From the NCBI GenBank assembly GCA_964536865.1, contig CAZHYN010000001.1, positions 16,195 through 80,194 of the forward strand: a stretch of DNA of 64,000 nucleotides, read 5' to 3'. The translations under genes were made by a program, and so were the position numbers. The notes beneath the pieces are model-generated. The model searched no databases. It was not told the DNA's origin and saw only the letters and a list, made by a program, of their open reading frames with translations. This DNA comes from an uncultured Planctomycetia bacterium. Lineage in GTDB: Bacteria > Omnitrophota > Gorgyraeia > Duberdicusellales > 4484-171. Shown here piece after piece: positions 9,498 to 62,744 of this stretch. Every line of letters starts with the position of its first letter. Position 1 is the stretch's first letter.

Positions 9498-9507
9498 AGT
9501 CTTTTTC

Positions 9508-9536
9508 TTGACAATTTCTCCAATCTCTTATAAAAT
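9508..9536 (+). promoter_or_regulatory. Sigma70-type promoter upstream of parAB
   Basis: TTGACA (9508-9513), 17-nt spacer, TAAAAT (9531-9536). Confidence 0.5.
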
Positions 9537-9560
9537 TAAAAACCAGAAGATTACTTACAG

Positions 9561-9586
9561 AAAAAGTTTCCACGTGGAAACTTTTT
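9561..9586. promoter_or_regulatory. Perfect 26-bp palindrome with a parS-like core, upstream of parA
   Basis: AAAAAGTTTCCACGTGGAAACTTTTT; the core GTTTCCACGTGGAAAC resembles the parS consensus tGTTTCACGTGAAACa with one extra base pair per half-site. Confidence 0.55.
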
Positions 9587-9641
9587 CGTCAGAGGCGAAT
9601 CTCTGATAAGGAACTATAAGATTTATAAACACTTTTCTTCA

Positions 9642-44606: not shown

Positions 44607-45226
44607 AACTCATTGAGGCAGAAAAGAAAAGTTCCTCTAGGGGAGGAGAGGTAAAAAAACGGTTACGTTTCTCTTTCCTAGGAGCTCTTAGAGGACGGTG
44701 GGCCTTCTTTAAGGAGGCCTTTTCTACTAATCGTAAAGTGTTTGTAGGAGATATTAGCTTGATTAATCGAATTCTTATGGGAGTAGCTATCCTTCTCGGT
44801 TTTTATGTAGTGGTAAACAACACTCTTTCTTTTCTCGCTCTACCTCGAAAGATAGAAAAGACTATGCAGGTAAAAACTAGGAATTTTAAGATTTCTTCTT
44901 TGAAGGAGTTATCTATTCTAAAAGAAGCTTCCTACTATTTAGATAAAGTAAAAAAGAGAGATATCTTTGCAATGGTGATAGAGAAGCCCAAAGTGAAAGA
45001 AAAGGAGGAGAAAAAGTTAATTAAAGAAGTAGAAGAGAAAACAAAAGATTTAAAATTGGTAGGGATTGCCTGGTCAGACAATCCTGATGCTATGATTGAG
45101 GATACCAAGGTAGAAAAGACCTATTTTGTCAAACAGGGAGATATTATAAATGGTGTAAGGATAGAGAGGATTTTTAGAGATAAAGTGGTGTTAACCTATA
45201 AAGGAGAAAAGATAGAGTTAAAATGA
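44567..45226 (+). CDS. Bitopic inner-membrane protein, possible secretin-coupling partner (GspB/GspC/PilP-like)
   Basis: Single TM (ILMGVAILLGFYVVV) with a periplasmic C-terminal beta-rich domain; sits between the ExeA-like and secretin genes. Confidence 0.45.
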   Translation: MVSGSSTPERELLKLIEAEKKSSSRGGEVKKRLRFSFLGALRGRWAFFKEAFSTNRKVFVGDISLINRILMGVAILLGFYVVVNNTLSFLALPRKIEKTMQVKTRNFKISSLKELSILKEASYYLDKVKKRDIFAMVIEKPKVKEKEEKKLIKEVEEKTKDLKLVGIAWSDNPDAMIEDTKVEKTYFVKQGDIINGVRIERIFRDKVVLTYKGEKIELK

Positions 45227-48161: not shown

Positions 48162-49915
48162 GAAAAGTTATTATCTCTTTTATAATTTTATCGATTTTAA
48201 TAGTCTATCCAGGGTTTCCTTTTTCCTCCAGAGAGGAAAATGATAAATTATCTAAAAGAATTTCTCTAAATTTCCAAAATATTGATATTCTAGAAGCATT
48301 AAAGTATATTGCTATAAAAGGAGGGATAAATATTATTCCTACCAGAAAAGTTTCAGGGAGGGTAACTCTTAAGGTAGATAACGCTCCTATAAAAGATATT
48401 TTTGATATTATGCTCCGCTCCAATAATTTAGCCTATGATAAGAAAGGGAGTATCTACAATGTGATGACTGAAGAAGAGTATAAAGCCCTCTATGGTAAAA
48501 GTTTTTCTGATACTAGGAAAGTGAAAGTATTCCATCTTACTTACGCTATACCAGAGCAGATTATGAAACTCTGTGAGAATATGAAAAGTGAGATTGGAAA
48601 GATATTTTTGGATTCTGAATCGGGTAGTTTAGTAGTAATTGATACTCCTCAGAATATAGAAGAGATAAGCAAAGCTATAGAAGATATAGAGAGCAAAAAA
48701 ACGGTGATTAAAGTATTTGATTTAAAGTACGCTAATGCTAAAGTTATAGCCGATAAGCTTAAGGAGCAAATTACTAAAAAAGGCATAGGATTTGTTCAAG
48801 CAGATGAAGCTACCAGTCAAGTAGTTGTACGAACCCTGCCAGAGAGGATGGAAGAAGTTGAAAAGATAGTTGAGGAGCTGGATAAGAAGACAAAAGAAGT
48901 GTTAATAGATGCAAAAATCGTCAAAATTACCTTCTCTCGAGAGCTAACCCGAGGAATAGAGTGGGAAGGGCTTTTTGATGTAGCAAGAAAGTACGGTCTT
49001 ACTTATATTGGTTCCTACCCTTTTAGTTTCGTAAGTCATACCACTACAGGCAGTTGGCGTTCACGAAAGCAGGTCTGGCAGGATACCGGATACGTTGGTT
49101 CTTACCCTTTCAGTGGTACAGCTTTTAATTATTCTAATAGCGGTAAAGTAGTAGGGGTTGAAAAGCTTCATGTAGGAGTGATAGGAAAGCATGATGTTGA
49201 TGCTCTATTTAAGTATCTCAACACTTTAGGGGAGACAAAAATTGTAGCTAATCCTAAACTAGCGGTAGTAAACAATCAGGAAGCACGCATTCACATTGGA
49301 GAAAAACAAGCCTATATTACAAATACCACTACTCAGACAGCAAGTACCACTACGGTAGCGGAGGAAGTTACCTTTGTAGATACAGGAATTCAACTTTCCG
49401 TCACTCCAACCATAAATGAAGAGGGTTTTGTTACTATAAAGTTGAAACCGGAAATAAGCAGTGTAGCTTCTTATTTAGTTACTGCCTCCAATAATAAGAT
49501 TCCCATAATCACCACCTCCACCGCAGAAACAACAGTAATTGTAAAAAATGCCACCACCATTATTATTGGGGGCCTAAAAGAAGAGAAGGAGGAGAAAAGT
49601 TCCAAGGAAGTTCCTGTGTTAAGTAAGATTCCTATGATAGGAGCCTTTTTTTCCTCAAAAAATAAAACCAAAACTCGCTCAGAACTTCTTATCTTGGTCA
49701 CTCCCCATATAATTAAAGGGGATGAGCTTACTACTGGATATCAGAGAGATTTTGGGCATCGTCTGGATAAAGAGGATCAACCTTACGCTTCCTTCTCTCC
49801 CCAAAAAATAGAATTTGAGTGCAAACCTTATCAATCTTATCCTCGCTTAGATGAAAAGGAGTCTTTTAAATTAAAGCCAGCAAGGGTTTCTTATGAAGAA
49901 GATCCCAAAGGTTGA
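48158..49915 (+). CDS. Secretin (GspD/PilQ/MshL family), paralog 2
   Basis: About 65% aa identity to the 45223-46962 ORF over the N-terminal domains; same secretin core. Confidence 0.8.
   Translation: MRKVIISFIILSILIVYPGFPFSSREENDKLSKRISLNFQNIDILEALKYIAIKGGINIIPTRKVSGRVTLKVDNAPIKDIFDIMLRSNNLAYDKKGSIYNVMTEEEYKALYGKSFSDTRKVKVFHLTYAIPEQIMKLCENMKSEIGKIFLDSESGSLVVIDTPQNIEEISKAIEDIESKKTVIKVFDLKYANAKVIADKLKEQITKKGIGFVQADEATSQVVVRTLPERMEEVEKIVEELDKKTKEVLIDAKIVKITFSRELTRGIEWEGLFDVARKYGLTYIGSYPFSFVSHTTTGSWRSRKQVWQDTGYVGSYPFSGTAFNYSNSGKVVGVEKLHVGVIGKHDVDALFKYLNTLGETKIVANPKLAVVNNQEARIHIGEKQAYITNTTTQTASTTTVAEEVTFVDTGIQLSVTPTINEEGFVTIKLKPEISSVASYLVTASNNKIPIITTSTAETTVIVKNATTIIIGGLKEEKEEKSSKEVPVLSKIPMIGAFFSSKNKTKTRSELLILVTPHIIKGDELTTGYQRDFGHRLDKEDQPYASFSPQKIEFECKPYQSYPRLDEKESFKLKPARVSYEEDPKG
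49054..49119 (+). repeat. Near-identical 66-nt block shared by the two secretin paralogs (copy 2)
   Basis: See copy 1. Confidence 0.8.
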
Positions 49916-50870
49916 GAAAGTTGACCTAAATAAGATATCTTTATCTTTGGTACTTTTTATTTCTTTTCTCTACTTTCCCTACGTTTATACCCAAGAGAAG
50001 AGTGTTTCTTTAAAGGAGGAATATCGGAAACTAAAGGAGGCATATGATCAGGTAGTTAAAGACAGAGATAATCTTTTATTTCAGGCAAAAAATCTCCTGA
50101 AGTATAAAAAGAAGGTTAGGGAGCTGGAGAAAGAGCTCCAAGATTTACTCAAAGAGAAAGAGAAGTTTGATTTAGAGATTAAAAAAAGGGAAGACTATAT
50201 TAAAGAGCTTAAGAAGAAAATTAAGGAGCTTACCCAAGAAAATACTCAGCAGTTGGAGCAAATCGCGGCTTTAAAAAATTATATTGAAAAGATGGAGGTT
50301 GAATATAAAATAATTAATGAGACAAGGAAGAAAATTAAGGAGTTAAAGGACGAAAAAAGAAAGTTAAAAGGTGAGATAAGGAAATTAACTGCTAAGATAA
50401 AGAAGCTAGAGGACGAAAAGATCGATTTAAAAGCAGAGACTTTGGTATATAAGAGGCAATTCTACGAAATAAGGAGAAAGTATGAGGAGGCATTAGCTAA
50501 GAATAGAAGATTGGAAAAAAAATTAGCTGAGGTTCCTAAAAAGTTTGCTGAGATTGCTAGAGAAAATAAAGCTCTTATAAAAGAAACTGCGTTGATGCAT
50601 TATAACTTAGGAGTTTTTTATACCCAACATAAGGAGTATAAGCGAGCAATTGCTGAATTTGAAAAAGCAATTGAGCTTAATCCTGACGACCCTTATGCTC
50701 ATTTTAATCTTGGTTATATTTATGCTGAGTATCTCCTAAATCGTCCCAAGGCTATAGAACATTTCAGGCATTACCTCCGGTTGGCAGATAAGAACGATAA
50801 AGATGTTGATTGGGTAAAAAAATATATTCTCACTTGGCAGGCTTGGGAAGGAAAGACCCCTCTTAAGTGA
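49893..50870 (+). CDS. Membrane-anchored coiled-coil protein with C-terminal TPR repeats, paralog 2
   Basis: Same architecture as the 46962-48161 ORF; shared LHYNLGVFYTQ...NLG(V/Y)IY(S/A)EY TPR block. Confidence 0.65.
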   Translation: MKKIPKVEKVDLNKISLSLVLFISFLYFPYVYTQEKSVSLKEEYRKLKEAYDQVVKDRDNLLFQAKNLLKYKKKVRELEKELQDLLKEKEKFDLEIKKREDYIKELKKKIKELTQENTQQLEQIAALKNYIEKMEVEYKIINETRKKIKELKDEKRKLKGEIRKLTAKIKKLEDEKIDLKAETLVYKRQFYEIRRKYEEALAKNRRLEKKLAEVPKKFAEIARENKALIKETALMHYNLGVFYTQHKEYKRAIAEFEKAIELNPDDPYAHFNLGYIYAEYLLNRPKAIEHFRHYLRLADKNDKDVDWVKKYILTWQAWEGKTPLK

Positions 50871-50885
50871 AAGAAAGGAGGATTT

Positions 50886-51464
50886 ATGAGAAGAACTATT
50901 TTTATTTTAATTAGTATTATACTTACTCTTTCTCTTATGGATAATATAGAGGCTTCCTCTGGGAGAGTTCCAAGGGAGGAAAAAGAAGGTGCTGGTCCTC
51001 CTCAAGTATCCAGAGAAACTGCCCCCTCCAAAAAAGAAGCAGTTAGATCTCTTTCTAAAGAAAGACAAAAGAAACTAGAGGCAAAGCGTCTTCAGAAAGA
51101 GAAGGAGCTTTTACAAAAGAAGAAAAAAGCATTAAATAACACTGAATGGGATATAGAAATTGTTCCTATAGGTAGAAAAGGTAGAAAGACCAAAGACACC
51201 TTAATTTTTAAAGATATGAAAGTTTTTTCTAAGAATCTAAAAAATAAAAAATTCTCCCCTACTAACTACTCCTTACATCTTAATCAGGATGGAACTTTAG
51301 TCTGGGAAACTATGCAGACAAATCAGGATGGAAAGATTGTGTTCTGGCGAGGAGAGGTTACCCCAGATATGAGGTTTATGAGAGGGATAATTACTTTTCC
51401 TGATGAGGAGAAAAATAAAGATTTTAGTTTTAAGAGTACAGCTAAAAGAATTTTGGCTCCTTAA
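50886..51464 (+). CDS. Secreted/periplasmic hypothetical protein
   Basis: Signal peptide MRRTIFILISIILTLSL; K/E-rich N-terminal half. Confidence 0.5.
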   Translation: MRRTIFILISIILTLSLMDNIEASSGRVPREEKEGAGPPQVSRETAPSKKEAVRSLSKERQKKLEAKRLQKEKELLQKKKKALNNTEWDIEIVPIGRKGRKTKDTLIFKDMKVFSKNLKNKKFSPTNYSLHLNQDGTLVWETMQTNQDGKIVFWRGEVTPDMRFMRGIITFPDEEKNKDFSFKSTAKRILAP

Positions 51465-51484
51465 AATAACGAGGGAGGTGATTT

Positions 51485-52300
51485 ATTTATACTGAATATT
51501 GGGGCCTAACCTGTAAGCCATTTGAAAATGTAGCTGATCCTAACTTTTTCTATTGTTCTTCCACTCATCGAGAGGCTTTAGCAAGGATGATTTATGCGGT
51601 AAGAGAGAGAAAGTTAGGATTTCTTCTATTGGGCAGATATGGTTTAGGCAAGACTTTTTTGAGCAAGGCCTTAGAGAAAGAGTGTTCCGATAGTAACTAT
51701 AGGTTTGTATCTATCTCCAATCCTCGACTTACTCCTTTAGAACTAGTTAAAGAAATCAGCTATCAGCTGGGAGTAGTTCCAGTAGATCAAAGTTGGACTA
51801 AGGTTGATTATCTTCATAAGATAAAAGAGACTTTGGAGAAAAATTACCAGGAAGGTTTCCATACTGTCATTATAATAGATGAAATGCAAAGTATTGAAAG
51901 TAACGAAGTACTTGAAGAAATAAGGCTATTTTTCAATTTGCAGAAAGAGGTTATCTTTTTTACTTTAATCCTTTTGGCCCAATTATCTTTTAAAGAAAAT
52001 TTAGAGAAGTTTCCTCACTTCAAACAAAGGATACCTATAAGATATGAACTGTCTCCTTTGGATGAAGGAGAAACAAAAAAGTATATAGAGTTCCGCTTAA
52101 AAAAAGCAGGTGCAGCTAAAGAGATTTTCTCTTCCAAGGCATGTAAGCAGATTTATGCTCTAAGTAAAGGAGTTCCTCGCTTGATAAATAATATTTGTGA
52201 CTTAGCTCTTTTAGCAGGGTACTTAGATAGTTTGGAAGTAATCAAAGAAGATACTATCCTTCAAATAGCTCAGGATCTGGGGGAGACACCAAATGATTGA
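51485..52300 (+). CDS. ExeA/GspA/MshM-like AAA ATPase, paralog 2 (probable ATT start)
   Basis: Walker A LLGRYGLGKTFL and Walker B IIIDEMQ. The frame is open from 51482, after an in-frame TGA; the upstream residues YTEYWGLTCKPFENVADPNFFY align with the N-terminus of the 43746 paralog (FKILGFDKEPFSTSPDPDFFY), so the real start lies before the track's ATG at 51587. SD GAGGGAGGTG (51471-51480) sits 4 nt before ATT at 51485. Confidence 0.7.
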   Translation: MYTEYWGLTCKPFENVADPNFFYCSSTHREALARMIYAVRERKLGFLLLGRYGLGKTFLSKALEKECSDSNYRFVSISNPRLTPLELVKEISYQLGVVPVDQSWTKVDYLHKIKETLEKNYQEGFHTVIIIDEMQSIESNEVLEEIRLFFNLQKEVIFFTLILLAQLSFKENLEKFPHFKQRIPIRYELSPLDEGETKKYIEFRLKKAGAAKEIFSSKACKQIYALSKGVPRLINNICDLALLAGYLDSLEVIKEDTILQIAQDLGETPND

Positions 52301-53309
52301 TTTTTCAAAAATTTTTGGAAACGGTAAAGATAAAGAGAAACCTTCATCCCCCATTCATTTTGCTAAGGAACCACCCAAAGAGAAACTGCCTTCTAAGAAG
52401 GAAGCAAAGAAAATTTCCGAGAAAGAAAAAATGTTAGGTGGTATAGATGTGAAGCTTCTATATAAGGAATCTCTTGTCTTAGCAGATAAAATTTTCAGCT
52501 CTTCCCAACCTATTTTACCGGAAGATGTAAAAGAAGTTAAGGAAATAGTTGAGAAAATTGTAGATTGTATAACTAGAGAGGGCGAACGGTTGGTTGAAAT
52601 CACCTTTAATAAGCTCCCCCAGGAGTACCACTTTATTTCTCTGAATATGGTTAACGTGTGTGTTCTATCTCTATATATAGGAATAGCCTTAGGTCTTTCT
52701 CGAGATAAGCTTATAGATCTAGGAATAGCTGCTCTCCTTCATGATTTAGGGATGAAAAAATATCAAAGTATAATTGATCAACCTCGAAAATTAACTCCCC
52801 AAGAGTATAAGGAAATAGAAAATCATCCTATTGTAACTGCCCAGATGCTTTCTCATCTTAAAGAGTTAAGCAGTAAAATCTTAGAGAGTATAAGTCAAGA
52901 ACATGAACGTATGGATGGCTCGGGTTATCCTAAAAATTTAAAGAAAGAAGAAATTGATGAGTTTGCACAAATAATGGCAGTAGTAGATGTTTATGAAGCT
53001 TTAACTCACTCTCGTCCCTATCGCGAGGCTTATAAACCCTCAGAGGCAATTAAAATTATGTTAGAGATGAAAGAAAGATTCAGCTATACAGTGATGAATG
53101 TTTTTTTAGAAAAAATAGGAATTTATCCTAAAGGAAGTTATGTAGAGCTTAACACAAGAGAGATAGCCCAGATAGTACGACAGAATCCTAAACTTCCTTG
53201 TTATCCGGTAATCAAAATAATTTACAATAGTAAAGGAGAAAAATTAGATGAGCCTAAAGAGGTAGATTTGAGCACTAACCCGACAGTTTATATTAGGAAG
53301 TGTCTATAA
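52293..53309 (+). CDS. HD-GYP domain protein (putative c-di-GMP phosphodiesterase)
   Basis: AALLHDLGM and HHERMDGSGYP motifs. Confidence 0.8.
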   Translation: MIDFSKIFGNGKDKEKPSSPIHFAKEPPKEKLPSKKEAKKISEKEKMLGGIDVKLLYKESLVLADKIFSSSQPILPEDVKEVKEIVEKIVDCITREGERLVEITFNKLPQEYHFISLNMVNVCVLSLYIGIALGLSRDKLIDLGIAALLHDLGMKKYQSIIDQPRKLTPQEYKEIENHPIVTAQMLSHLKELSSKILESISQEHERMDGSGYPKNLKKEEIDEFAQIMAVVDVYEALTHSRPYREAYKPSEAIKIMLEMKERFSYTVMNVFLEKIGIYPKGSYVELNTREIAQIVRQNPKLPCYPVIKIIYNSKGEKLDEPKEVDLSTNPTVYIRKCL

Positions 53310-53328
53310 ATTAAAAATTTCCCTTTTT

Positions 53329-54681
53329 ATGAAGAAATTTTCAGTATATATTTTAACAGCATTAATACTTTTTTCTCTTTATAATTTTGTGAAACTAAGG
53401 GTAGAGTTTTCTAATGAGAAAAAAAAAGGAGAGATGCTTAGTCAAAGATTAAAAGAAGCCGAAAGAGAGTCTCAACACCTAAAAGAGCTAATAAATAGTA
53501 GGGAGAAGGAGATAGATAAATTAAAGAGAGAATTAGAGGAACTTAAGTTTCCTCAGCGTCTAAAGAACGCCCTTGCTCAAGCGCAGGACCTTATAAGAAA
53601 ACTGAACGATGATTTAAGTAACTTAAGAAGAGAAAAAACTCGCTTGGAGAAGGAAAATTTTTCCCTTAAAGAGAGAATAGAGCTTAGTAACAAACGAATT
53701 ACTCAATTACTTGCTCAACTGGAGGAGGTAAGAGACAAATTTGAAGTTAGCAAGAAAGAAAGAGGTAGAGTTATAGCAAGAGAAATTACCAGATTGAAGA
53801 AAGCGTTAGAGGAGAAAGACAAGGAAACAGAGGATTTAAGAAAGGATTTAGAGAGGTATAAAGAGAAAGCTTCAGATTTAGAAAGAAAGGCCAAGTTCTT
53901 AAGAGCTCAACTTACTAAAGTTAAAAGAGGATTTTCTAAAGATACTTCAGATAGAAAGAGAGTGAAGCAATTAATGGCTTCTTTGGAGAGGGTAAATAGA
54001 GAAAAAGATACACTTTCTGCGGAGGTTAGACAACTTAGGTTAGAGAGAGAACAGCTACAGAGAAAAATTGATGAATTGTCCAAACTTAATCAAGATTTAC
54101 AGCATCAGGTGAGCCAACTTAAAAAGCAAATAGAGGAAAAAGAAGAGCAGATAGTTAGTCTAGAGAAGAAAATTAAGAAAGGTGTCTCTTCAGTTGATAC
54201 AGAGACAAGACTCCTAAGAGCTAGACTAGCTCTCCAGAAAGAGGAATTTCAAAAAGTAAATACTCTCTATCAAGAACTAAAAGAGCAACTGAAAGATTTA
54301 GCAAAGATTATCTCTGATAAAGAACAAGAGATAGAAAGTAAAGATAAAGAGATAGCTAGATTAAATCAGGAAATTTCTTATTTAAAACTTAGATTAGTAG
54401 ATTTAGAAGATAGGTTGAAGGAGACACAGAGTATTCAGGACGAAGTTTTAAGAAGGTTTTCTGAAGTAGTAGAATTAAATTCTGCTCTTCAAGAAAAGTT
54501 AGGGACGATTTCTACTTTTTTAGGTAAGCCCAGGGTTAAGAAGAAAACAACCTTAAGAGAAGAATTAACTTTACCTGAAGAACCAGAAGTAGTAAGTTCT
54601 TCGGAAGGGGGGGAGAAGGAGCGAGTAGAAAGTTTAAAGAAGCAGGTAGAAGTTATCCTTCATGAAAGTTCACAGGAATAG
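53329..54681 (+). CDS. Membrane-anchored long coiled-coil protein
   Basis: N-terminal TM then about 400 aa of K/E/L/R heptad-like repeats; no catalytic motifs. Confidence 0.55.
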   Translation: MKKFSVYILTALILFSLYNFVKLRVEFSNEKKKGEMLSQRLKEAERESQHLKELINSREKEIDKLKRELEELKFPQRLKNALAQAQDLIRKLNDDLSNLRREKTRLEKENFSLKERIELSNKRITQLLAQLEEVRDKFEVSKKERGRVIAREITRLKKALEEKDKETEDLRKDLERYKEKASDLERKAKFLRAQLTKVKRGFSKDTSDRKRVKQLMASLERVNREKDTLSAEVRQLRLEREQLQRKIDELSKLNQDLQHQVSQLKKQIEEKEEQIVSLEKKIKKGVSSVDTETRLLRARLALQKEEFQKVNTLYQELKEQLKDLAKIISDKEQEIESKDKEIARLNQEISYLKLRLVDLEDRLKETQSIQDEVLRRFSEVVELNSALQEKLGTISTFLGKPRVKKKTTLREELTLPEEPEVVSSSEGGEKERVESLKKQVEVILHESSQE

Positions 54682-55537
54682 TTTTCTCTGGATAAAAACT
54701 TTTTTAAAACTACCACTAAAGATTATCTTTCTTTTAAGTGTAGGGGGAATTTTACTTTTTTCCTATGCCAGCTATTCTAAAACTCCTCAAGAAGAGGCTA
54801 AGGAGCATTATCGCTTAGGGGAGATTTATTACCAGCATGGTCTTTATAAGGAAGCAGAAAGAGAATTTAAGAAAGCCTTACAGTTGCTCAAAAGAGAAGT
54901 TCCTTTGGAAGAGGAAGGGTCATTTCAAAAAGAGGGGAAACCTCCCTCTCCTTCTGAGGAATCTCAGTATATTATCTCCCCGGGCGATGTTCTTTATATA
55001 AGTGTGTGGGAGAATCCTGATTTGACTGGGGAGGTTATCGTACGCCCCGATGGGATGATTTCTTTCCCTCTTATAGATGAGGTAAAAGCAGCTGGGTTAA
55101 CTATATCTGAGTTAGATAAAGAGATGACTGAAATGCTTAAGGAATATATTCGTTTCCCTGACGTTTCTATCTCTCTAAGAGCAATGGGGGGTCAAAGGGT
55201 AATTATTCTCGGAGAAGTAAAAAGTCCTGGAGTTTACTCTTTAAAAGGGAGAAAAACTGTTTTAGAGGCAGTAGCTTTGGCAGGAGGATTTACTAAGGAC
55301 GCAGTTTTAAACAGTGTAATAGTAATAAAAGGAGGGCTCAAAAACCCCCATCCTAAACGGGTAGATTTAGCCAGCGCTCTTAAAAAAGGAAAGATGAAAG
55401 AAGATATTGTGTTAGACTCTCAAGATATAGTCTTTGTTCCAAAAAAGTTTATTGCTGATTTAAATTATTTTTTAACTCAGATTTTGGGTCCTATATCCCG
55501 AGGAGTTTATACTGCCAAGGAAATTCAACGCTGGTAA
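54662..55537 (+). CDS. Polysaccharide export protein (Wza-like)
   Basis: Signal/TM, TPR-like helix, and Poly_export motif region (SPGDVLYISVWENPDLTGEVIVRPDGMISFPLIDEVKAAGLTISEL) followed by SLBB-like segments. Confidence 0.7.
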   Translation: MKVHRNSFLWIKTFLKLPLKIIFLLSVGGILLFSYASYSKTPQEEAKEHYRLGEIYYQHGLYKEAEREFKKALQLLKREVPLEEEGSFQKEGKPPSPSEESQYIISPGDVLYISVWENPDLTGEVIVRPDGMISFPLIDEVKAAGLTISELDKEMTEMLKEYIRFPDVSISLRAMGGQRVIILGEVKSPGVYSLKGRKTVLEAVALAGGFTKDAVLNSVIVIKGGLKNPHPKRVDLASALKKGKMKEDIVLDSQDIVFVPKKFIADLNYFLTQILGPISRGVYTAKEIQRW

Positions 55538-55570: not shown

Positions 55571-55867
55571 GTGATGAGTTTTTGGCAGAAAAAATATAAA
55601 AAGAATCCCAATATGGTATTTAGAAAGATTGCTGATGAGGTAATTTTAGTGCCCATAAGAAATAAAGTAGGTGATTTACAGAGTATCTATACCTTGAATG
55701 AAGTTGGTGCACGTATATGGAAGTTAATTAATGGAAAGAGAGAATTAGCCAAGATTAAGGAGATTCTTTTGGAGGAGTTCAGCGTCGATGTTCCTCGAGT
55801 TGAAGAAGATTTAAAAGCATTTGTACAGAAATTAGAAAGAATAGGAGCAGTAGAGGAAGTTAAGTAG
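55571..55867 (+). CDS. PqqD-family peptide-binding protein (RiPP recognition element)
   Basis: 98 aa; PqqD-like pattern (VFRKIADEVILVP...YTLNEVGARIWKLINGKRELAKIKEILLEEF). Confidence 0.75.
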   Translation: MMSFWQKKYKKNPNMVFRKIADEVILVPIRNKVGDLQSIYTLNEVGARIWKLINGKRELAKIKEILLEEFSVDVPRVEEDLKAFVQKLERIGAVEEVK

Positions 55868-55873
55868 CATAAT

Positions 55874-56995
55874 ATGGAGTGTATTTATATACCTAAGATT
55901 TCTTATAGGGAGTTTAGTGAATCAATTCACAGGAAAGTAGGAGAAAAACGAATTCCCCTTAATGGATCTATAGAGGTTACTTTGCGTTGTAACTTAAGAT
56001 GTCTACATTGTTACTGTAGTTACAACTCTCAAAAAAAAGAATTAAGTTATAAAGATTTCTGTCGTATTTTTGACGAGATTGCTGATATGGGGTGTTTGTG
56101 GCTGCTTATTACAGGAGGAGAGCCACTCTTAAGAGAGGATTTTTTAAAAATTTATACTTACGCTAAAAAGAAAGGATTTATTATAACACTTTTTACTAAT
56201 GCAACCTTACTTACCCCTTCCATTGTGGATTGTTTAAAAGATTATCCTCCTTTTGCGGTGGAGGTTACTTTGTATGGAATAACTAAATCTACTTATGAGA
56301 AAATTACTCGTATTCCTGGTTCATTTAACCGATGTATAGAAGGTATTCATCTTCTTTTAGAAAGAAAAATTCCTCTTAGGTTAAAAACAGTGGTGATGAA
56401 TTTAAATAAACACGAGCTTTTCAAGATAAAGAGATTTGCCGAAAATTTGGGAGTAGAGTTTAGATTTGACCCTCTTATTAACCCTAAATTAGATGGCTCT
56501 AAAGAACCTTGCAAGTTGAGAATTTCGCCACAAGAAGTTATTGAGCTTGATTTAATGGATAAAAAAAGAAAAGAAGCATGGGAGGAGTTCTGTAAAAAAT
56601 TTCCTTCGCCTATAAACTCAGAATGGCTTTACAGTTGTAGTGCAGGAAGAACTTCTTTCCACATAGATCCCTATGGAAATTTAAGTATTTGTATTATTGA
56701 AAGGTTCCATACCTACAATCTTTTAAAGGGCACATTTAAGGAAGGATGGGAAACTTTTATCCCTGAAAAAATACTCAGTCTTAAAAAAGATAATAGATAC
56801 GAATGCAATCAGTGCCAGTTAAGAGACTTATGCGATCGTTGTCCTGGGTGGTCACAGCTTGAAGCAGGTAACCCTCAGGAAGTGGTAGATTATCTTTGTC
56901 AGATAGCTCATCTAAGAGCCAAAGTGTTTGGTTTTGGCAGAGAAAGAAAGGAGGGGGAGAAAGATGAAAAAGAGAGAAAAAAAATTCTACTCTAA
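55874..56995 (+). CDS. Radical SAM protein with C-terminal SPASM domain
   Basis: CNLRCLHCY (CxxxCxxC) at the N-terminus; C-terminal Cys cluster (CSAGR...CNQCQLRDLCDRCPGW). Confidence 0.8.
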   Translation: MECIYIPKISYREFSESIHRKVGEKRIPLNGSIEVTLRCNLRCLHCYCSYNSQKKELSYKDFCRIFDEIADMGCLWLLITGGEPLLREDFLKIYTYAKKKGFIITLFTNATLLTPSIVDCLKDYPPFAVEVTLYGITKSTYEKITRIPGSFNRCIEGIHLLLERKIPLRLKTVVMNLNKHELFKIKRFAENLGVEFRFDPLINPKLDGSKEPCKLRISPQEVIELDLMDKKRKEAWEEFCKKFPSPINSEWLYSCSAGRTSFHIDPYGNLSICIIERFHTYNLLKGTFKEGWETFIPEKILSLKKDNRYECNQCQLRDLCDRCPGWSQLEAGNPQEVVDYLCQIAHLRAKVFGFGRERKEGEKDEKERKKILL

Positions 56996-57137
56996 ACCTC
57001 AGATAAAAGAAGTTAATTTAGTGCCTCAAGAAGCAGTCCTTCTTGGTTGTAAAACTACAGCTGATCCCAGTGGGAGAACAGTTGGGCGGAATAATTGTGG
57101 TAACAGAGATAACTTTTGTCAAACCGCGGTAAGTTAG
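56964..57137 (+). CDS. Candidate RiPP precursor peptide (57 aa, 3 Cys, C-terminal Ser)
   Basis: MKKREKKFYSKPQIKEVNLVPQEAVLLGCKTTADPSGRTVGRNNCGNRDNFCQTAVS; strong SD GGAGGGGGAG (56951-56960) then ATG; overlaps the 3' end of the rSAM gene in another frame; charged leader-like N-terminus with a Cys/Gly/Asn/Thr-rich C-terminal core. Confidence 0.45.
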   Translation: MKKREKKFYSKPQIKEVNLVPQEAVLLGCKTTADPSGRTVGRNNCGNRDNFCQTAVS

Positions 57138-57166: not shown

Positions 57167-58039
57167 ATGCTAAAGGTAGAAATAGGGGGAGTGGCTATTT
57201 CTCTTTCTTTTGTAGATGGTAAAGGTTGGATACCTCAAGTTAGTAAAGCAATGCATTCTTTTCTTACTAGGAGAAAAAGGTTCGATTTAGCTCTTAAGGT
57301 TCACTGCGGTTTTCTTCCCCATCTGAATGTAAAGAGAGTTGTGTTTAATTCGGGAGGAAACTGGACTCTTTTTAAGGATAGAAATAATAGATTAGTTTTT
57401 TCTCTTACTTCCCCTGCTACCGGTCCTCATCCTTATGCTTTGGCAGTTGTTGATTCTCAATTTAAAGTAGGGAATTTATACCTTAGAGAGCCAAATTACT
57501 TTCTTTCTAAAAAAGCTATTGTGAATCCTTTAGAGTACCCCTTAGATGAGGTTTTAGTAGTGCATCTTCTCTCAAGAAATAGAGGAATACTTCTTCATGG
57601 ATGCGGAATTAAATACAAAGGAGAGGGGCTACTTTTTTTAGGAACTTCGGGAAGAGGAAAAAGCACCATTGCCAATCTTTGGAAGGAAGAGAAAGAAGTC
57701 GCCATTTTAAGTGACGATAGAATTGTTGTCCGCAAGAAAGGCTCCAATTTCTGGATATATGGTACTCCCTGGCACGGAGATGCAAAATTATGTTCTCCTC
57801 AGAAAGTAGTTCTAAAGAAGATATTTTTTCTTAAGCACGGCAAGAAAAATTCGCTTAAAAAGATGAAGTTAAGTGAAATAATTTCTCAGTTAGTTGTCTG
57901 TTCTTTCCCTCCTTTTTGGGATAAGAAAGGTATGAAGTTTATCTTAAGTTTTTGTTCTGATTTAGCAAAAGTTCCTTCTTATGAGCTAAATTTCCTACCT
58001 AACAGGAGTGTTTTGGATCTTATCAAACGTAAGGTGTGA
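57167..58039 (+). CDS. HPr kinase-like (HprK C-terminal domain-related) putative Ser kinase
   Basis: P-loop GLLFLGTSGRGKSTIANLW followed by LSDDRIVV and GTPWHGD, as in the HprK/P C-domain. Confidence 0.65.
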   Translation: MLKVEIGGVAISLSFVDGKGWIPQVSKAMHSFLTRRKRFDLALKVHCGFLPHLNVKRVVFNSGGNWTLFKDRNNRLVFSLTSPATGPHPYALAVVDSQFKVGNLYLREPNYFLSKKAIVNPLEYPLDEVLVVHLLSRNRGILLHGCGIKYKGEGLLFLGTSGRGKSTIANLWKEEKEVAILSDDRIVVRKKGSNFWIYGTPWHGDAKLCSPQKVVLKKIFFLKHGKKNSLKKMKLSEIISQLVVCSFPPFWDKKGMKFILSFCSDLAKVPSYELNFLPNRSVLDLIKRKV

Positions 58040-58536
58040 AGTGCCAAAATTCTGAATTTTTAAAGTTAAGTAAGGATATATTAGAGAAAGGGTTTTCTCT
58101 TCGCTTTCAGGTAAGGGGGGCAAGTATGTACCCTTTTATCAAAAGCGGTGATACCGTGGAAATAGAGCCAAAGAATATCTCCAAAATAAACTATGCGGAT
58201 ATTATCCTTTACGCCAATTACGAAGGAAAAATTGTAATCCATCGAGTAGTAAAAAAAATCAAGAAGAATAATGAAACTATCCTAGCAACTAGAGGAGACT
58301 TTCTGCCACCTTCCTTAAGAGAGTTTGTTCCTTCAGAGAAAGTATTAGGTAAAGTTGTAGTTATTAGAAAGGCAAATAGGATGTTTAGAATAGATAGGGG
58401 ATTTTTAAGGCTGTTGAATATTGTATATACCAAACTTTTACCTATTATTAGGTGGGGACATAGTTTTGGTGCCAAACTGCTAAAGTTTACCCCGAGCCAC
58501 AGAAAGTTACCTGTGACATTACATCGGGGTGGATAA
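58036..58536 (+). CDS. S26/S24-family (signal peptidase I / LexA-like) serine peptidase
   Basis: GASMYPFIKSGD matches the catalytic Ser box (GDSMxP-like); candidate Lys at IVIHRVVKK. Confidence 0.6.
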   Translation: MKCQNSEFLKLSKDILEKGFSLRFQVRGASMYPFIKSGDTVEIEPKNISKINYADIILYANYEGKIVIHRVVKKIKKNNETILATRGDFLPPSLREFVPSEKVLGKVVVIRKANRMFRIDRGFLRLLNIVYTKLLPIIRWGHSFGAKLLKFTPSHRKLPVTLHRGG

Positions 58537-58576: not shown

Positions 58577-59731
58577 ATGCGATTGTTATATCGGGGTGGC
58601 CGGGGTTTACTAAAGCAAATTAAAAATATTATGAGGGGAGGGGATAACTTTATTACTGTATTGAGCTGTTCTATCTGGAATAAGGAGAAAAGTGGAGAGA
58701 TAGAGGAAGTAATAAAGAATAATTTAGATTGGGATTATGTATTAAGGAAATCCCGTAAAGAGGGGGTTTCTTCTTTGATTTATTATTGCTTAAAGAAATT
58801 CGAGTTACAAAAATATTTGCCTTTTAAGACCTTAAAAACCTTAGAGGAAGCCTATTATAAAAATTCTCTAAGGAATATTATTATGATTAGTGAAACAAAA
58901 AAGGTATTAGAATCTTTTAAAAAAGAAGGTATAGAATCAATTATTCTTAAAGGAGTTTTCTTGGCAGAGAAAATTTATAGGAATATTGCTTTGAGAGAGA
59001 TGACAGATGTTGATATTCTAATAAGGAGAAAAAATGTCAAGAAAGCAAATAGAATTTTAAATTCTCTAGGATACCCAACTCCGAAATACTATGAAGATCT
59101 TTTGAAAATATCTTCTTCCCTTAATACTTTAATGTATAAAGGTAATATACGAGTCCATCTTCACTGGCATCTTATAAATTCAACTTGGCCTTTAAACTTT
59201 TTAATAGAAAAAATTAGTATAGAAAGAATCTTTGAATACGCCAAACCTATAAAGATTGATACTTTAGATACTCTAACTTTGTCCAATGAGCATCTTTTAA
59301 TTTACCTTTGCTATCATCTTTTTAATCACTCTTTTGACAGGCTGATTCTTCTGGTAGATATTCTCGGCTTGTTAAATTCTTATAGTATTGACTGGAATTT
59401 TGTTATAGAAGAGGCAGAACGTTTTAAGCTTTCATTTATTCTCTATTATGTTTTATCTTTTATATCTCAAAAAAAGGAAGAAAAGGTTCCTTACTTAGAA
59501 AGATTGAAACCATCTAAATCTTATCTCAAAAAACTTCCTCCTTCTTCTTTTACTTCTTATTTTATATACCTTCTTCTTCAAAAGGGATTTAAAAAGAAGA
59601 TAAAGTTCCTTATAAATACCATTTTCCCTCCTCCCTGTGTAGTAGCTCATAGTTTCTCCATTTCTCCAAAGGAAGTAACCAGAGCTCATTATTTTTTTCG
59701 TCTTATTAAACCTTTTCTTAAATTCTTCTAA
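58577..59731 (+). CDS. PF14907-type nucleotidyltransferase family protein
   Basis: MTDVDILIRR nucleotidyltransferase motif; 384 aa; this family is often linked to HprK-like kinases and PqqD in lasso-type loci; the true start may be the downstream Met at about 58631. Confidence 0.6.
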   Translation: MRLLYRGGRGLLKQIKNIMRGGDNFITVLSCSIWNKEKSGEIEEVIKNNLDWDYVLRKSRKEGVSSLIYYCLKKFELQKYLPFKTLKTLEEAYYKNSLRNIIMISETKKVLESFKKEGIESIILKGVFLAEKIYRNIALREMTDVDILIRRKNVKKANRILNSLGYPTPKYYEDLLKISSSLNTLMYKGNIRVHLHWHLINSTWPLNFLIEKISIERIFEYAKPIKIDTLDTLTLSNEHLLIYLCYHLFNHSFDRLILLVDILGLLNSYSIDWNFVIEEAERFKLSFILYYVLSFISQKKEEKVPYLERLKPSKSYLKKLPPSSFTSYFIYLLLQKGFKKKIKFLINTIFPPPCVVAHSFSISPKEVTRAHYFFRLIKPFLKFF

Positions 59732-59754: not shown

Positions 59755-60567
59755 TTAGGAGTAAAGGAGACTGCCGTGTTTTTTAGCTTGCCTTAGAGCT
59801 AATTTAAAGGAAAGGAGAGCTATGGGAAGGAGGATAAGAAAGAAGAGAGTGAGGCAGGCTATTTCAACTTTTACTTCTTTTAGAGAAGCCCCCATAGCTA
59901 TACTCTTCCTCATACCTCTTAAAGCATAGGTTATAGGTAGAAGGTAGGAAATTTTTTGTAACACTTGCGGTAATACCTTAATAGGAAAGTAAACTCCTCC
60001 TAAAAATCTTGAAATCCCATTTAATACCCAATTAATAGGGTTTCCTCTCTTAAACACAAGAATGAAGCTTGCTGATAGAACTCCTAAGGCACTGAAAGAG
60101 AGAATGGTTAAGAGTAAAATTACTAGGGAGGAGATGAGATTTATCTTACTTAGATTGAATCCAAAAATAAGCCACCCTAAAAAAAGATACACCATTACCC
60201 TTAAAGATACAAAGAAAAAGTTCCATACCGCTCCTAAAAGTAAAATAGTACCAATACTAGTAGGAGACATAAGAAGGATTTCTAATGTTCCTTCGGACTG
60301 TTCATAGTGGATGACTTGGCTGAAACTATTTAGGGCAGCGGAGAGATATCCACTGAAGGCAAGTCCAATTAAGACAAAGGAAAAGTAGTCCCCTCCAAAT
60401 TCTTCTAAGTATTTAGAAGCTCCCTCTCCAAATAGCTTGGAGACGAAAAAGAAAGTAGCAACCGAGGCAAAAATAGAGATAAAATCTAAGAGGAAAGACA
60501 AACGGTAGCTTGAATTAATAAGAAAATCTCTCTTTAAAAAAGCAAGTAGCTTCCTAAGAAATATCAT
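59755..60567 (-). CDS. ABC-2 type transporter permease
   Basis: 270 aa with 6 TM segments; translationally coupled to the upstream ATPase. Confidence 0.75.
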   Translation of the reverse strand: MIFLRKLLAFLKRDFLINSSYRLSFLLDFISIFASVATFFFVSKLFGEGASKYLEEFGGDYFSFVLIGLAFSGYLSAALNSFSQVIHYEQSEGTLEILLMSPTSIGTILLLGAVWNFFFVSLRVMVYLFLGWLIFGFNLSKINLISSLVILLLTILSFSALGVLSASFILVFKRGNPINWVLNGISRFLGGVYFPIKVLPQVLQKISYLLPITYALRGMRKSIAMGASLKEVKVEIACLTLFFLILLPIALLSFKLALRQAKKHGSLLYS

Positions 60568-61270
60568 TCTTTATTATTTCTCCATATAAGTCTTTTAAAG
60601 AAGTTTGAATCTCCTTTATATTTTTAATTAGGAGAATTTCTCCCCTATTCATAATAGCAATTCTGTCAGCGACAGTTTCTGCTTCTTCCAAAAAATGGGT
60701 AGCAAAGAGGATTGTTTTTTTGAACTCTTTCGCTAATCTCTGCATAAGCTTTCTAAATTCTTTAGCCGTTAAGGGATCCAAACTTTTGGTAGGCTCATCC
60801 ATTATAATTATTTCCTTTTCCAGAATAAGAGTTCTTAAAAGGGAAAGGCGATGTTTGGTTCCTGTAGAATATTGCCAGAAAGGTTTGTCTAAGTCCTCTA
60901 CTTCTAAAATTTGTGAATAATTCTTTATTCTCTCTCTAATTTGATGGGAAGAAAGATTATAAATTGTAGCAAAGAATTCCAAATTCTGCTTTGCAGTAAG
61001 TTGAGGATAAAATCCATAAGTTTCCCCAGAAAAATAAGCAACCCCCCCTTTAACCTTTATCATTCCTCTTTCAGGAAGAATTAATCCACAAATTATTTTT
61101 AGAAGAGTAGTTTTACCTGCACCGTTAGGACCTAATAGAGCAAGCGCCTCCCCTCTATTTACTTTAAGATGTACTGAATTTAGAGCATAGATCCTGCGTG
61201 GGAGAAGAAAAAAATGGAAGATATCTCTCTTTATAAGAAAAGACTTGCTTAGCCCCTCTACTTCAATCAT
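60554..61270 (-). CDS. ABC transporter ATP-binding protein
   Basis: Walker A GPNGAGKTTLL, signature-like STGTKHRLSL, Walker B IIIMDEPT. Confidence 0.85.
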   Translation of the reverse strand: MIEVEGLSKSFLIKRDIFHFFLLPRRIYALNSVHLKVNRGEALALLGPNGAGKTTLLKIICGLILPERGMIKVKGGVAYFSGETYGFYPQLTAKQNLEFFATIYNLSSHQIRERIKNYSQILEVEDLDKPFWQYSTGTKHRLSLLRTLILEKEIIIMDEPTKSLDPLTAKEFRKLMQRLAKEFKKTILFATHFLEEAETVADRIAIMNRGEILLIKNIKEIQTSLKDLYGEIIKNDIS

Positions 61271-61346: not shown

Positions 61347-62744
61347 ATGAAAAAAAGAGTTTTACACCTTTCCTTATTACTAATCTCTATATCTGTAGTA
61401 GTCTTTCTACTAAGTTCTCCTTGCTTTCCCCAAGAAGAAAAAAGGTTCCAAATTGTAGGAGAGATTTTTGGTGTACCAGTACCTATTGGAAATTACTACT
61501 TTGCTAAAAGAGTAGTTTTAACTTTCAATGCCAAGTGGCGTCCTACACCTAAAGATGAGGAGGAATTGGAAGATTTGGTCTGGCAGGAACTTATTCTTTC
61601 TTATGAGGCTTATCGTCGGGGGATAGAAGCTAGTAGCAAGGAGATAGATGAGCATATAGATAAGATACTAAAAGCAGAGAAGGTAAATTTCGATTGGCGG
61701 AAAGAAAAAGAAAAGTTTGAAGAGTGGACAAAAAATAAATTGGGCGTATCTCCTCAGGTATTTAGAAATCAGATAGAACATCTAATAAAGCTAGAGAAGC
61801 TCCAGCAACAAGTAATAGAGAGTATTGAACCTGAAGTTACCGAGGAGGAAGCCTACCAGAAATTTCTCGATGAGTGTAATACTCTTTCTGTAGAGTTAGT
61901 ACAGTTTGATGAATTAAAAGAGGCAGAAAAGTTTTATAAGGAAGTTTCAAAACCTCAGGAAGAAGGAGCGTTAGAGAAACTTATTTGGGAAGATCTTCTC
62001 CTTTCCTATGAAGCATTTAAAAGAAAAGTAGAGGTAACTAAAGAAGAAATAGAAAAAAATATTTATAGGTATTTGAGAGGAAGGGAGGTTAGATTTAACT
62101 GGAAGAAAGATGAGAGAAAATTTAAAACGTGGCTTAAAGGTAATTTAGGTTTATCTCAAGAGGAATTCAAGAAATTTATTATTCACTTTGCAAAGATTGA
62201 TAAATTGAGGCAGTTAATCTATAGAAAAGAAGCTCCTCCTATTAGTGAGGAGAGATATACATATTTTCTCAGAGAGAAAAGAGATATCGAGAGAGCTTAT
62301 CAAAGGTTCTCTAAAGAATTTGGCTTTCCTCAAAATGCAGTATTGATATTTCCTACTTTCCAAGATGCTGAGGTATTTTATAAACGATTTAAGAGAGAAG
62401 CTACTCCTTGGGAAGATAGAAAAAGAAAAAAGCCTGATAGATTTAAAAGGCCGGGTTTCGTAGCTTTAGATTTTCTAATTCATATGTGGGGATTCAAAAG
62501 AGAAGATGCTTACAGGATGATAGAAAGAAAGGTTGGAGATATTTACCCTCCCGCCCCTATTTATAAAGGATATGGAGTATTTAAAATTCTTCGTGTTCGT
62601 AAAGCTAATCCTTCTGATTTTAGCAAGCGAAAAAAATACTATTTTGATAAGCTTAAGAGGATCAAAAAATATCAAAGATTTAAAGAATGGCTAAATTCTC
62701 TGAAGGAGGAAGCTAATATAAAAGTCTATAGTGATAAATTTTAA
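61347..62744 (+). CDS. Secreted protein with two tandem SurA-N/PpiD-like chaperone repeats
   Basis: Signal peptide; two units of about 115 aa share W(Q/E)(E/D)L(I/L)LSYEA...V(N/R)F(D/N)W(R/K)K(E/D)...(F/W)...LG(V/L)S. Confidence 0.5.
   Translation: MKKRVLHLSLLLISISVVVFLLSSPCFPQEEKRFQIVGEIFGVPVPIGNYYFAKRVVLTFNAKWRPTPKDEEELEDLVWQELILSYEAYRRGIEASSKEIDEHIDKILKAEKVNFDWRKEKEKFEEWTKNKLGVSPQVFRNQIEHLIKLEKLQQQVIESIEPEVTEEEAYQKFLDECNTLSVELVQFDELKEAEKFYKEVSKPQEEGALEKLIWEDLLLSYEAFKRKVEVTKEEIEKNIYRYLRGREVRFNWKKDERKFKTWLKGNLGLSQEEFKKFIIHFAKIDKLRQLIYRKEAPPISEERYTYFLREKRDIERAYQRFSKEFGFPQNAVLIFPTFQDAEVFYKRFKREATPWEDRKRKKPDRFKRPGFVALDFLIHMWGFKREDAYRMIERKVGDIYPPAPIYKGYGVFKILRVRKANPSDFSKRKKYYFDKLKRIKKYQRFKEWLNSLKEEANIKVYSDKF

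Follow-up and report, generated by a model that had tools for sequence, protein, structure and literature searches.

The window analysed here is a stretch of 64,000 nucleotides (nt) of contig CAZHYN010000001.1, from an uncultured bacterium of the Omnitrophota, and we focused on a 57-codon open reading frame (ORF) that begins inside the 3' end of a gene encoding a radical S-adenosylmethionine (rSAM) enzyme with a SPASM region. Judged by its conservation, this ORF is a real protein-coding gene. It is probably the precursor (A) gene of a cassette for a peptide made on the ribosome and modified after translation (RiPP), in which a RiPP recognition element (RRE) would guide modification by the rSAM enzyme, the C-terminal Ser would be phosphorylated, the leader removed and the product exported. 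The following features define the gene and its surroundings (positions are those of the window).

55874-56995, plus strand: radical SAM/SPASM peptide maturase, 373 amino acids (aa), Pfam Radical_SAM E=2.7e-20.
56950-56959, plus strand: Shine-Dalgarno (SD) element GGAGGGGGAG, GGAGG-type, inside the rSAM tail, with a 4-nt spacer (AAAG) to the ATG.
56964-57137, plus strand: candidate precursor peptide gene, 57 aa plus stop, with homologs in 80 of 84 loci and no Pfam or NCBIfam family.
56988-57047, plus strand: leader motif Y9-S-K-P-Q-I-K-E-V-N-L-V-P-Q-E-A-V-L-L-G, holding a YxxPx[ILV] RRE-binding motif of the type seen in lasso peptides and linear polyphosphorylated peptides (LPPs) and the E-(E)-A-V-L box.
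57048-57134, plus strand: putative core C29-K30...C45...C52...V-S57, hypervariable and G/S/T/K-rich, its exact boundary being putative.

The ORF runs from an ATG at 56964 to a TAG stop at 57135-57137 and is translated as MKKREKKFYSKPQIKEVNLVPQEAVLLGCKTTADPSGRTVGRNNCGNRDNFCQTAVS, with Cys29, Cys45, Cys52 and a C-terminal Ser57. The sequence-only reading that had first proposed this peptide gave the ORF, its translation, the Cys positions and the terminal Ser correctly, as re-read from the window. It had also described an SD 3 nt ahead of the ATG, of which the GGAGG-type element is present and the spacing is 4 nt, a trivial difference, and had set this SD and the first 32 nt of the ORF within the rSAM 3' end, in agreement with the 32-nt overlap given by the rSAM ORF. 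A scan for consensus promoters and terminators gave counts at background level inside the cassette, with no attenuator after the peptide gene.

In order to follow the ORF across genomes, we assembled 84 loci, i.e. the window, three contigs of near-identical strains and 80 species-representative loci fetched via the rSAM enzyme, the latter being the best of 468 tblastn-confirmed rSAM relatives in species-representative genomes. Small ORFs were found by a six-frame scan of these loci, and a hidden Markov model was built from those sharing a pattern. The resulting profile matched a same-strand ORF in 80 of the 84 loci, in about 14 phylum-level lineages; where none was matched (four loci), the contig finishes at the rSAM stop or no more than 120 nt past it. 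The peptide gene adjoins or overlaps the rSAM stop in 79/80 loci. Its start overlaps the rSAM gene in 20 loci, lies 0-60 nt downstream in 47 and farther downstream in 12, and is found upstream in one (L046), so that in 67/80 the gene is on the same strand and no farther than 60 nt from the rSAM stop. Start codons are ATG in 72 of the 80 genes, and an SD-like element precedes the chosen start in 72. At L084 and L085, the peptide is 68 % identical to that of the window and again overlaps the rSAM gene by 32 nt. Homologous short ORFs beside rSAM homologs, on which the sequence-only reading had made the existence of the gene depend, are therefore conserved across many phyla. Its remark that placement downstream of, and overlapping, the maturase is atypical does not hold, the downstream position being the rule of the family (79/80) and overlap occurring in 20/80.

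Comparison of the near-identical strains bears on the frame under selection. The 32-nt overlap holds two substitutions, both of which leave the peptide unchanged and alter the rSAM product (K>E and stop>Q, the latter adding 7 residues); the sample is tiny (two changes), and its direction agrees with the family-wide evidence. The peptides of these strains differ by six amino-acid changes, all in the C-terminal core and none in the leader. A chance frame in the rSAM 3' region and the intergenic spacer, left untranslated, could be suspected, given that the ORF is small, belongs to no database family and shares part of its length with another gene. This explanation, to which we give next to no credence, is effectively refuted by amino-acid conservation in 80/84 loci, with length, start, SD, three Cys and terminal Ser kept, and by overlap substitutions that favour the peptide frame over the rSAM frame.

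Such conservation was visible because the loci were fetched through the rSAM enzyme and then scanned in six frames; a search with the peptide only would wrongly suggest none. A word-indexed protein search using the peptide alone returned just two near-identical called proteins, and the relatives present in the word-indexed database were all unnamed or 'hypothetical' (71/71). No family model matched in a Pfam/NCBIfam scan of 69 family peptides. At E<=0.001, a profile of the peptide run against a library of 1.84 billion proteins gathered 1,670 cluster representatives (50 % identity), nearly all of 50-65 aa. One protein among the profile matches, P0265 (1,823 aa), was discarded as a false positive, i.e. 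an unrelated repeat protein. The peptide family is undescribed, and its precursor was previously unannotated.

The family follows the pattern Y-x-K-P-x-[ILV]-x-x-V-x-L-x-x-E-E-A-V-L-x-x-C-K, after which come a hypervariable G/S/T-rich stretch and two further Cys. Columns were counted over 79 unique peptides, with positions numbered from the conserved Tyr (=0), as listed below.

Leader columns (n=79): Y0 79; +2 K/R 78; +3 P 79; +5 I/L/V 77; +8 V/I 78; +10 L 77.
Leader and boundary columns (n=79): +14 E 75; +15 A 70; +16 V 67; +17 L 72; +20 C 77; +21 K 76.

The leader columns are thus 85-100 % conserved. Counted from the first Cys, the core is 21-33 residues long; it is hypervariable, with G/S/T/K/A/N/P abundant, and retains only the three Cys, the Lys, the Gly and the terminal Ser. 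Exactly three Cys were counted in 74/79 peptides; the gap between the second and third is mostly 4-6 residues, and the third lies 5-7 residues before the end. The C-terminal residue is Ser in 70 peptides, Thr in 7, Lys in 1 and Ala in 1, i.e. Ser/Thr in 77/79 (97 %), and the final two residues are Gly-Ser in 54/79. Among 8,018 background small ORFs of the same loci, Ser/Thr occupies the C-terminus in 14.6 % (binomial P ~1e-61, a value overstated by the relatedness of the sequences). No other Ser/Thr position is conserved in the core, and the second residue after the first Cys is Thr in just 30/72. The division made by the sequence-only reading into a Lys-rich N-terminal leader and a C-terminal core with three Cys is borne out by these counts, and a conserved leader followed by a variable core is, to judge from the alignment, classical RiPP precursor architecture.

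Some loci depart from this arrangement in the number or content of their precursor genes. Two complete tandem copies occur at L049 (4011-4523), and three tandem copies, two of them truncated and adjoining a run of N, at L031 (9059-9947). The peptides of a Syntrophaceae metagenome-assembled genome (MAG; L006:1157-1330) and an Aminicenantia MAG (L007:1511-1678) have near-identical leaders, KKLKKPY[H/Y]KPSINRVKLVPEEAVLTACK, and entirely different cores, one of which is W/R-rich; this could stem from a frameshift, from rapid replacement of the core or from an error in binning.

On the plus strand of the window, the genes are tightly packed in the order PqqD, rSAM/SPASM, peptide, HprK-like, S24/S26 peptidase and NTP_transf_5, and a convergent two-gene ATP-binding cassette (ABC) exporter of the ABC-2 type follows (59755-61270). 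The cassette has the look of a single operon. As a rule, PqqD, rSAM, peptide, kinase and peptidase follow one another in this order, including by the precomputed Pfam labels of L084 and L085. Co-occurrence was counted within 8 kb of the rSAM gene, and many contigs are short. The remaining members of the cassette are as follows, with the number of loci, out of 84, in which each family was found.

55571-55867, plus strand: discrete PqqD-family RRE, 98 aa, Pfam PqqD E=4.5e-16, directly upstream of the rSAM gene; 79 loci.
57167-58039, plus strand: HprK/ScmC-like P-loop kinase homolog, 290 aa, with Walker A GTSGRGKST and an invariant DDR, directly after the peptide gene; 73 loci.
58036-58536, plus strand: soluble (S24/S26) protein resembling type I signal peptidases (SpI) of the SipW/archaeal kind, 166 aa, candidate leader peptidase; 55 loci.
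58577-59731, plus strand: NTP_transf_5 nucleotidyltransferase-family protein, 384 aa, Pfam PF14907 E=1.5e-53; 37 loci.
59755-60567, minus strand: ABC-2 type transporter permease, 270 aa, Pfam ABC2_membrane E=5.5e-18; 18 loci.
60554-61270, minus strand: ABC transporter ATPase, 238 aa, Pfam ABC_tran E=9e-24, DrrA subfamily E=2e-46; 23 loci.
Other families near the rSAM gene: HD-GYP, 23 loci; ExeA-like, 20 loci; Wza-like, 19 loci.

The best solved relative of the discrete RRE is the lasso B1 protein TbiB1 (E=2.9e-7, vs 0.8 for genuine PqqD), and it also matches a 2026 PDB entry, 9x8z, named 'PqqD family protein'.

In the rSAM enzyme, the motif C39-x3-C43-x2-C46 (CX3CX2C) is invariant in 33 sequences, as are seven further Cys of the C-terminal SPASM region (C255, C273, C311, C314, C320, C323 and C342). 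Its relatives number in the thousands and are 55-69 % identical across phyla. Conservation stops at about residue 352 ('...AHLRAKVF' in the window, '...AHLRAEAF' in homologs); beyond it, the K/E-rich tail of the window enzyme aligns to nothing in 32 homologs, whose own tails measure 0 to about 45 residues and differ in sequence. The tail is unconstrained, and the conserved region of the homologs does end before it, a point on which the sequence-only reading had asked for a comparison. The best PDB sequence match is SkfB, a thioether synthase (4e-21), followed by PqqE, and an AlphaFold2 model of the enzyme (mean predicted local distance difference test, pLDDT, 81) matches PqqE, SuiB, SkfB and anSME about equally; these nearest solved relatives are all peptide-modifying. 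Curated sactipeptide and ranthipeptide maturase models scored far below their cut-offs against the enzyme (StsB 82 vs 625; AlbA 62 vs 850), as did the PqqE and MftC models.

Orthologs of the rSAM enzyme in Acidobacteriota and Binatia (L065, L073, L075, L076, L078 and L079) carry an extra Cys-rich C-terminal extension of 70-90 aa, with the motif 'PHGxCEYCxGG ... CSxGGCxSC' (at about 9070-9300 in the 17-kb loci), and the other lineages are without it. This extension may be an additional metal- or cluster-binding module.

Matches of the kinase homolog taken as a single sequence are weak (HprK_rel_B 8.6e-7; Hpr_kinase_C 7.6e-4). When the family was scanned, HprK_rel_B matched 22/22 members, ScmC 20/22 and HPr(Ser) kinase 11/22, and HPr kinases of the PDB align over the P-loop and DDR segment at about 1e-3. 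No ScmC-type model matched the window protein in the local Pfam copy. Its ortholog at L084 (3376-4272) has a precomputed match to Pfam PF27840 'ScmC', so Pfam seems to include these kinase homologs as a family, under a name taken from the SynChlorMet cassette. Of the loci with ample flank, only two are without both the kinase homolog and the SpI-like peptidase, i.e. those of two bacteria of the candidate phyla radiation, L044 (Portnoybacteria, 1731-2791) and L068 (Saccharibacteria, 9002-10034). Both keep the PqqD and rSAM genes and the peptide leader, and downstream of these stands a different gene, of about 230 aa, marked by a Cys-protease-like motif, YSC[IV]PACLQ. Their core is divergent and without 'CK' (CSPGEKMTSPW.PCLYTCNKDR[S/K], ending in DRS or DRK). 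A link between the kinase homolog and the terminal Ser is supported because no other hydroxyl residue of the core is conserved and because these kinase-less loci have divergent core ends.

The peptidase scores above the cut-off of TIGR02228 (57.4 bits vs 51.85) and is also matched by the SipW model and Peptidase_S24; phmmer against the PDB gave nothing useful for it. Its catalytic motifs are conserved (GxSMxP in 54/55 members, x-H-R about 39 residues later in 50/55), and an N-terminal hydrophobic anchor is absent. In nine loci (L001, L002, L004, L011, L014, L032, L041, L056 and L079), the peptidase and NTP_transf_5 lie in a single stop-to-stop frame, of 475-773 aa where complete, some 1.0-1.2 kb past the end of the rSAM gene (+0.23 kb in L079). 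The shared frame suggests protease-nucleotidyltransferase fusion proteins, which would parallel the lasso B2 fusions.

The sequence-only reading had taken paeninodin as precedent for phosphorylation of the terminal Ser. With Ser or Thr at the end of 97 % of the peptides and an HprK-like gene after the peptide in 73/84 loci, the analogy is reasonable; the nearest published system is nevertheless the LPP family (PMC13381572), and not paeninodin alone. As defined by Popov et al. (Nat Commun 2026), LPP clusters (lppA-K-B-S-D-N) combine TIGR02228, PqqD, an HprK-like kinase, NTP_transf_5 and an MsbA-like exporter (PMC13381572). Their leader reads YxxPxVLxHQxIxFET, then xxS, and its YxxPx[ILV] part is the RRE-binding motif of lasso and LPP leaders; LppK polyphosphorylates core Ser3, and LppS (TIGR02228 model) cleaves the leader only when it is presented by the RRE LppB (PMC13381572). 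These clusters sit in capsular polysaccharide loci, were reported as restricted to Bacillota and involve no rSAM enzyme (PMC13381572); the LPP domain tables, as far as they were accessible, hold no radical-SAM term. The window family shares with LPP the TIGR02228 peptidase, the discrete PqqD RRE, the HprK-like kinase (of remote homology in both systems), NTP_transf_5 and an ABC exporter, all detected by the same models, as well as the Tyr-type YxxPx[V/L/I] start of the leader, a conserved N-terminus with a variable C-terminus and a polysaccharide-locus neighbourhood. It differs by an rSAM/SPASM gene adjoining the peptide (in every locus, by construction), whereas LPP has no cross-linking enzyme and its products are described as linear. 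It also has E-E-A-V-L-x-x-C-K, three Cys and a C-terminal Gly-Ser in place of VLxHQxIxFET and a conserved Ser near the boundary, and separate ABC2_membrane and ABC_tran genes instead of a fused MsbA-like exporter. Finally, its hosts are Omnitrophota, Desulfobacterota, Aminicenantes/Acidobacteriota, Nitrospirota, Chloroflexota and others, those of LPP being Bacillota.

Lasso peptides of the paeninodin type are phosphorylated on the C-terminal Ser by an HprK homolog that acts on the linear precursor, and in pseudomycoidin a nucleotidyltransferase, sometimes fused to the B2 protease, glycosylates the resulting Ser phosphate (PMC8498205). Shared with these phosphorylated lasso systems are the lasso-type B1/PqqD RRE (TbiB1 best), a YxxPxL-type leader, a precursor ending in Ser (or Thr, in the proportions given above) with an HprK homolog in the cluster, and a nucleotidyltransferase sometimes joined to the leader protease. 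The genes annotated between 43.7 and 62.7 kb of the window, and those at L084/L085, include neither a lasso cyclase (Asn-synthase homolog) nor a B2 transglutaminase-like protease. The rSAM/SPASM enzyme and the SpI-like peptidase stand here in their place, and the core, with its three Cys, is without the ring-forming pattern of an N-terminal Gly/Ala...Asp/Glu. By gene content, the cassette is thus an rSAM-bearing relative of both the LPP and the phosphorylated-lasso systems, distributed across phyla.

Sactipeptides and ranthipeptides (SkfA/SkfB, subtilosin/AlbA, SCIFF) resemble the family in having an RRE-guided rSAM/SPASM or twitch maturase and a short Cys-containing core, and differ in that their RRE is an N-terminal domain of the maturase and not a separate protein. 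We know of no kinase, SpI peptidase or NTP_transf_5 in these classes. Curated sactipeptide precursor models gave just one match among the 69 peptides, to StsA at chance level (E=0.017). The triad of HprK-related, PqqD-family and rSAM/SPASM proteins also occurs in the GeoRSP and SynChlorMet (Scm) cassettes of NCBIfam/TIGRFAMs, which are curated and unpublished. Tested against their equivalog models (TIGR04302/04303/04355 and TIGR04248-04251), the window proteins scored 4- to 7-fold below the cut-offs (geo_PqqD 35/100, GeoRSP_rSAM 65/400, ScmC 17/125, ScmD 27/100, ScmE and ScmF about 72/400). At the family level, the relationship of the kinase homolog to Scm/HprK_rel_B is, as far as the family scan can tell, real despite these sub-cut-off scores. 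For GeoRSP and SynChlorMet, neither literature nor a precursor was found. Our literature searches on HPr kinase with radical SAM and PqqD, on RiPPs of Omnitrophota and on PF14907/PF07475 found no description of the window cassette, and kinases are not mentioned in the compendium paper on rSAM RiPPs.

Put together, these relationships suggest a pathway. The discrete RRE would bind the leader through Y-x-K-P-x-[ILV], like lasso B1 and LppB, and present the peptide to the enzymes. The rSAM/SPASM enzyme would then modify the core at or through the three Cys, most likely by intramolecular thioethers of the sactionine or ranthionine type; a thioether is our leading guess for its product, held at slightly less than an even chance. 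The HprK-like kinase may (poly)phosphorylate the C-terminal Ser on its side chain while the precursor is still linear, as in paeninodin-type lasso peptides, and NTP_transf_5 may decorate the phosphate. Leader removal would fall to the SpI-like peptidase with the help of the RRE, as for LppS, with cleavage within or just after the E-E-A-V-L-x-x box. By register with LPP (Tyr at -16), the site would follow the Ala conserved in E-E-A; just as likely, going by the small-residue rule, is a cut between the A/G at Y+19 and the Cys. The ABC-2 transporter would finally export the product.

Several observations weigh against this scheme as a whole or against single steps. Translation, cross-linking, phosphorylation and cleavage are all inferred, for every member of the family. 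NTP_transf_5 was found in 37/84 loci and ABC genes in 23/84, partly as a result of short contigs, and LppN, the NTP_transf_5 protein of LPP, had no detectable activity (PMC13381572). As regards the rSAM enzyme, its best curated-family matches are AhbD, NirJ and MftC, and not sactisynthases, and the fold search of its model cannot separate thioether, C-C and oxidation chemistries. The kinase homolog of the window reaches 19.5 bits against Hpr_kinase_C (gathering threshold 33.3) and 28 against HprK_rel_B (cut-off 200), and its single-sequence AlphaFold2 model is unusable (pLDDT 38). LppK targets core Ser3, not a C-terminal Ser, and rejects Thr (PMC13381572). In the window family, 7/79 peptides end in Thr, and the peptide of L057 ends in Ala despite a kinase gene at that locus.

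The points on the rSAM enzyme leave room for a tentative alternative, to which we give appreciable but minority weight, in which the peptide is a genuine rSAM-modified precursor that carries no thioether. C-C or C-O cross-links, epimerisation or Cys oxidation (anSME-like formylglycine) would be formed instead, and the three Cys would be disulfide or metal ligands or recognition elements. PqqE and SuiB (C-C cross-links), EpeE (epimerase) and anSME (Cys oxidation) score like SkfB as fold or sequence neighbours, the top NCBIfam matches are AhbD, NirJ and MftC, and no acceptor residue is conserved in the core. Against this alternative, the Cys are the only invariant core residues besides the Lys, the Gly and the Ser, a pattern expected of reacting groups, acceptor residues of sactionines are typically not conserved, and a thioether synthase is the best PDB sequence match.

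We consider it rather unlikely that the kinase homolog acts elsewhere (on another residue, a sugar or a lipid) or serves as an ATPase or scaffold, the terminal Gly-Ser then being a recognition signal for the exporter, peptidase or nucleotidyltransferase, or a processing signal. The remote homology to HprK, the LPP phosphosite with its rejection of Thr, the Thr-ending peptides and the Ala-ending one at a kinase-bearing locus would all fit such a role. They are countered by a core without any other conserved Ser/Thr, by the different C-terminal end at kinase-less loci and by the paeninodin-type kinases, which need a C-terminal Ser specifically and little else (PMC8498205). Phosphorylation of the terminal Ser thus stays our preferred reading for the kinase homolog.

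Excision of a redox cofactor or small metabolite from the peptide, similar to pyrroloquinoline quinone (PQQ) or mycofactocin, could be evoked from the unusual conservation of the rSAM enzyme across phyla, its matches to the mycofactocin maturase and PqqE models and the PqqD-family chaperone alongside. Cofactor precursors have an invariant reacting core (E-x3-Y in PqqA, a C-terminal V-Y in MftA). The core of the window family is hypervariable in both sequence and length and has no invariant residues of the PqqA or MftA type, the cassette includes a leader peptidase and an exporter, and lasso B1, not PqqD, is the nearer relative of the RRE. We regard a cofactor precursor as very improbable and rejected it on these grounds.

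As to the exported, modified peptide of our proposed pathway, its core is hypervariable and its gene often lies beside polysaccharide-export genes. Both features point to a peptide outside the cell, whether antagonistic or associated with the envelope or a biofilm, and away from a cofactor. A more specific role is improbable in our view, though it deserves mention: NTP_transf_5 would use the Ser-(poly)phosphate at the C-terminus of the rSAM-cross-linked peptide to attach a sugar or polysaccharide, and the product would not be a free antibiotic-like peptide. The window family, the LPPs and the phosphorylated lasso peptides would then be primers, caps or anchors of exopolysaccharide or capsule, which would explain the polysaccharide-locus position of all three systems across distant phyla.

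If the proposed pathway is right, the peptides form a large, so far unannotated RiPP family (1,670 clusters at 50 % identity), carried mostly by uncultivated anaerobes (Omnitrophota, Desulfobacterota, Aminicenantes, Nitrospirota and Chloroflexota). The kinase/SpI-peptidase/NTP_transf_5 tailoring module, seen in the lasso peptides and LPPs of Bacillota, would be a portable unit that couples to three scaffold strategies, i.e. a lasso cyclase, none, or an rSAM enzyme. The link between phosphorylated RiPPs and polysaccharide loci would extend well beyond Bacillota. A very conserved orphan rSAM/SPASM clade would receive its missing substrate, and the GeoRSP and Scm cassettes, for which no substrates are recorded, would by extension gain a lead. 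As the peptide was missed by gene callers and by Pfam/NCBIfam, a family model could serve to annotate its genes.

Upstream of the cassette lie genes for a Wza-like polysaccharide export protein, a coiled-coil protein, an HD-GYP protein and an ExeA-like ATPase. They close a repeated envelope module (43746-55537), which comprises, in order, an ExeA-like AAA_22 ATPase (43746-44606), a protein similar to component C of the type II secretion system, a secretin (45223-46962), a tetratricopeptide repeat (TPR) protein, a second secretin (48158-49915), a TPR/coiled-coil protein, a second ExeA-like ATPase (51587-52300, with a weak match to a PEP-CTERM-associated ATPase model), the HD-GYP protein, the coiled-coil protein of 450 aa and the Wza-like exporter. 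ExeA-like, HD-GYP and Wza-like genes occur near the cassette in 19-23/84 loci. On the other side, an ORF of 465 aa with no Pfam match (61347-62744) is also found beside the ABC genes of the cassette in two loci of Omnitrophota (L001 and L011); in L045 it lies close to the cassette as well. Two loci additionally hold toxin-antitoxin-like pairs within the cassette: in L010 (5270-5754), a pair of 59 aa and 102 aa (ParE/RelE-like) lies between the rSAM and peptide genes, and in L084 (6031-7444), an AbiEii-containing pair lies between NTP_transf_5 and the ABC genes.

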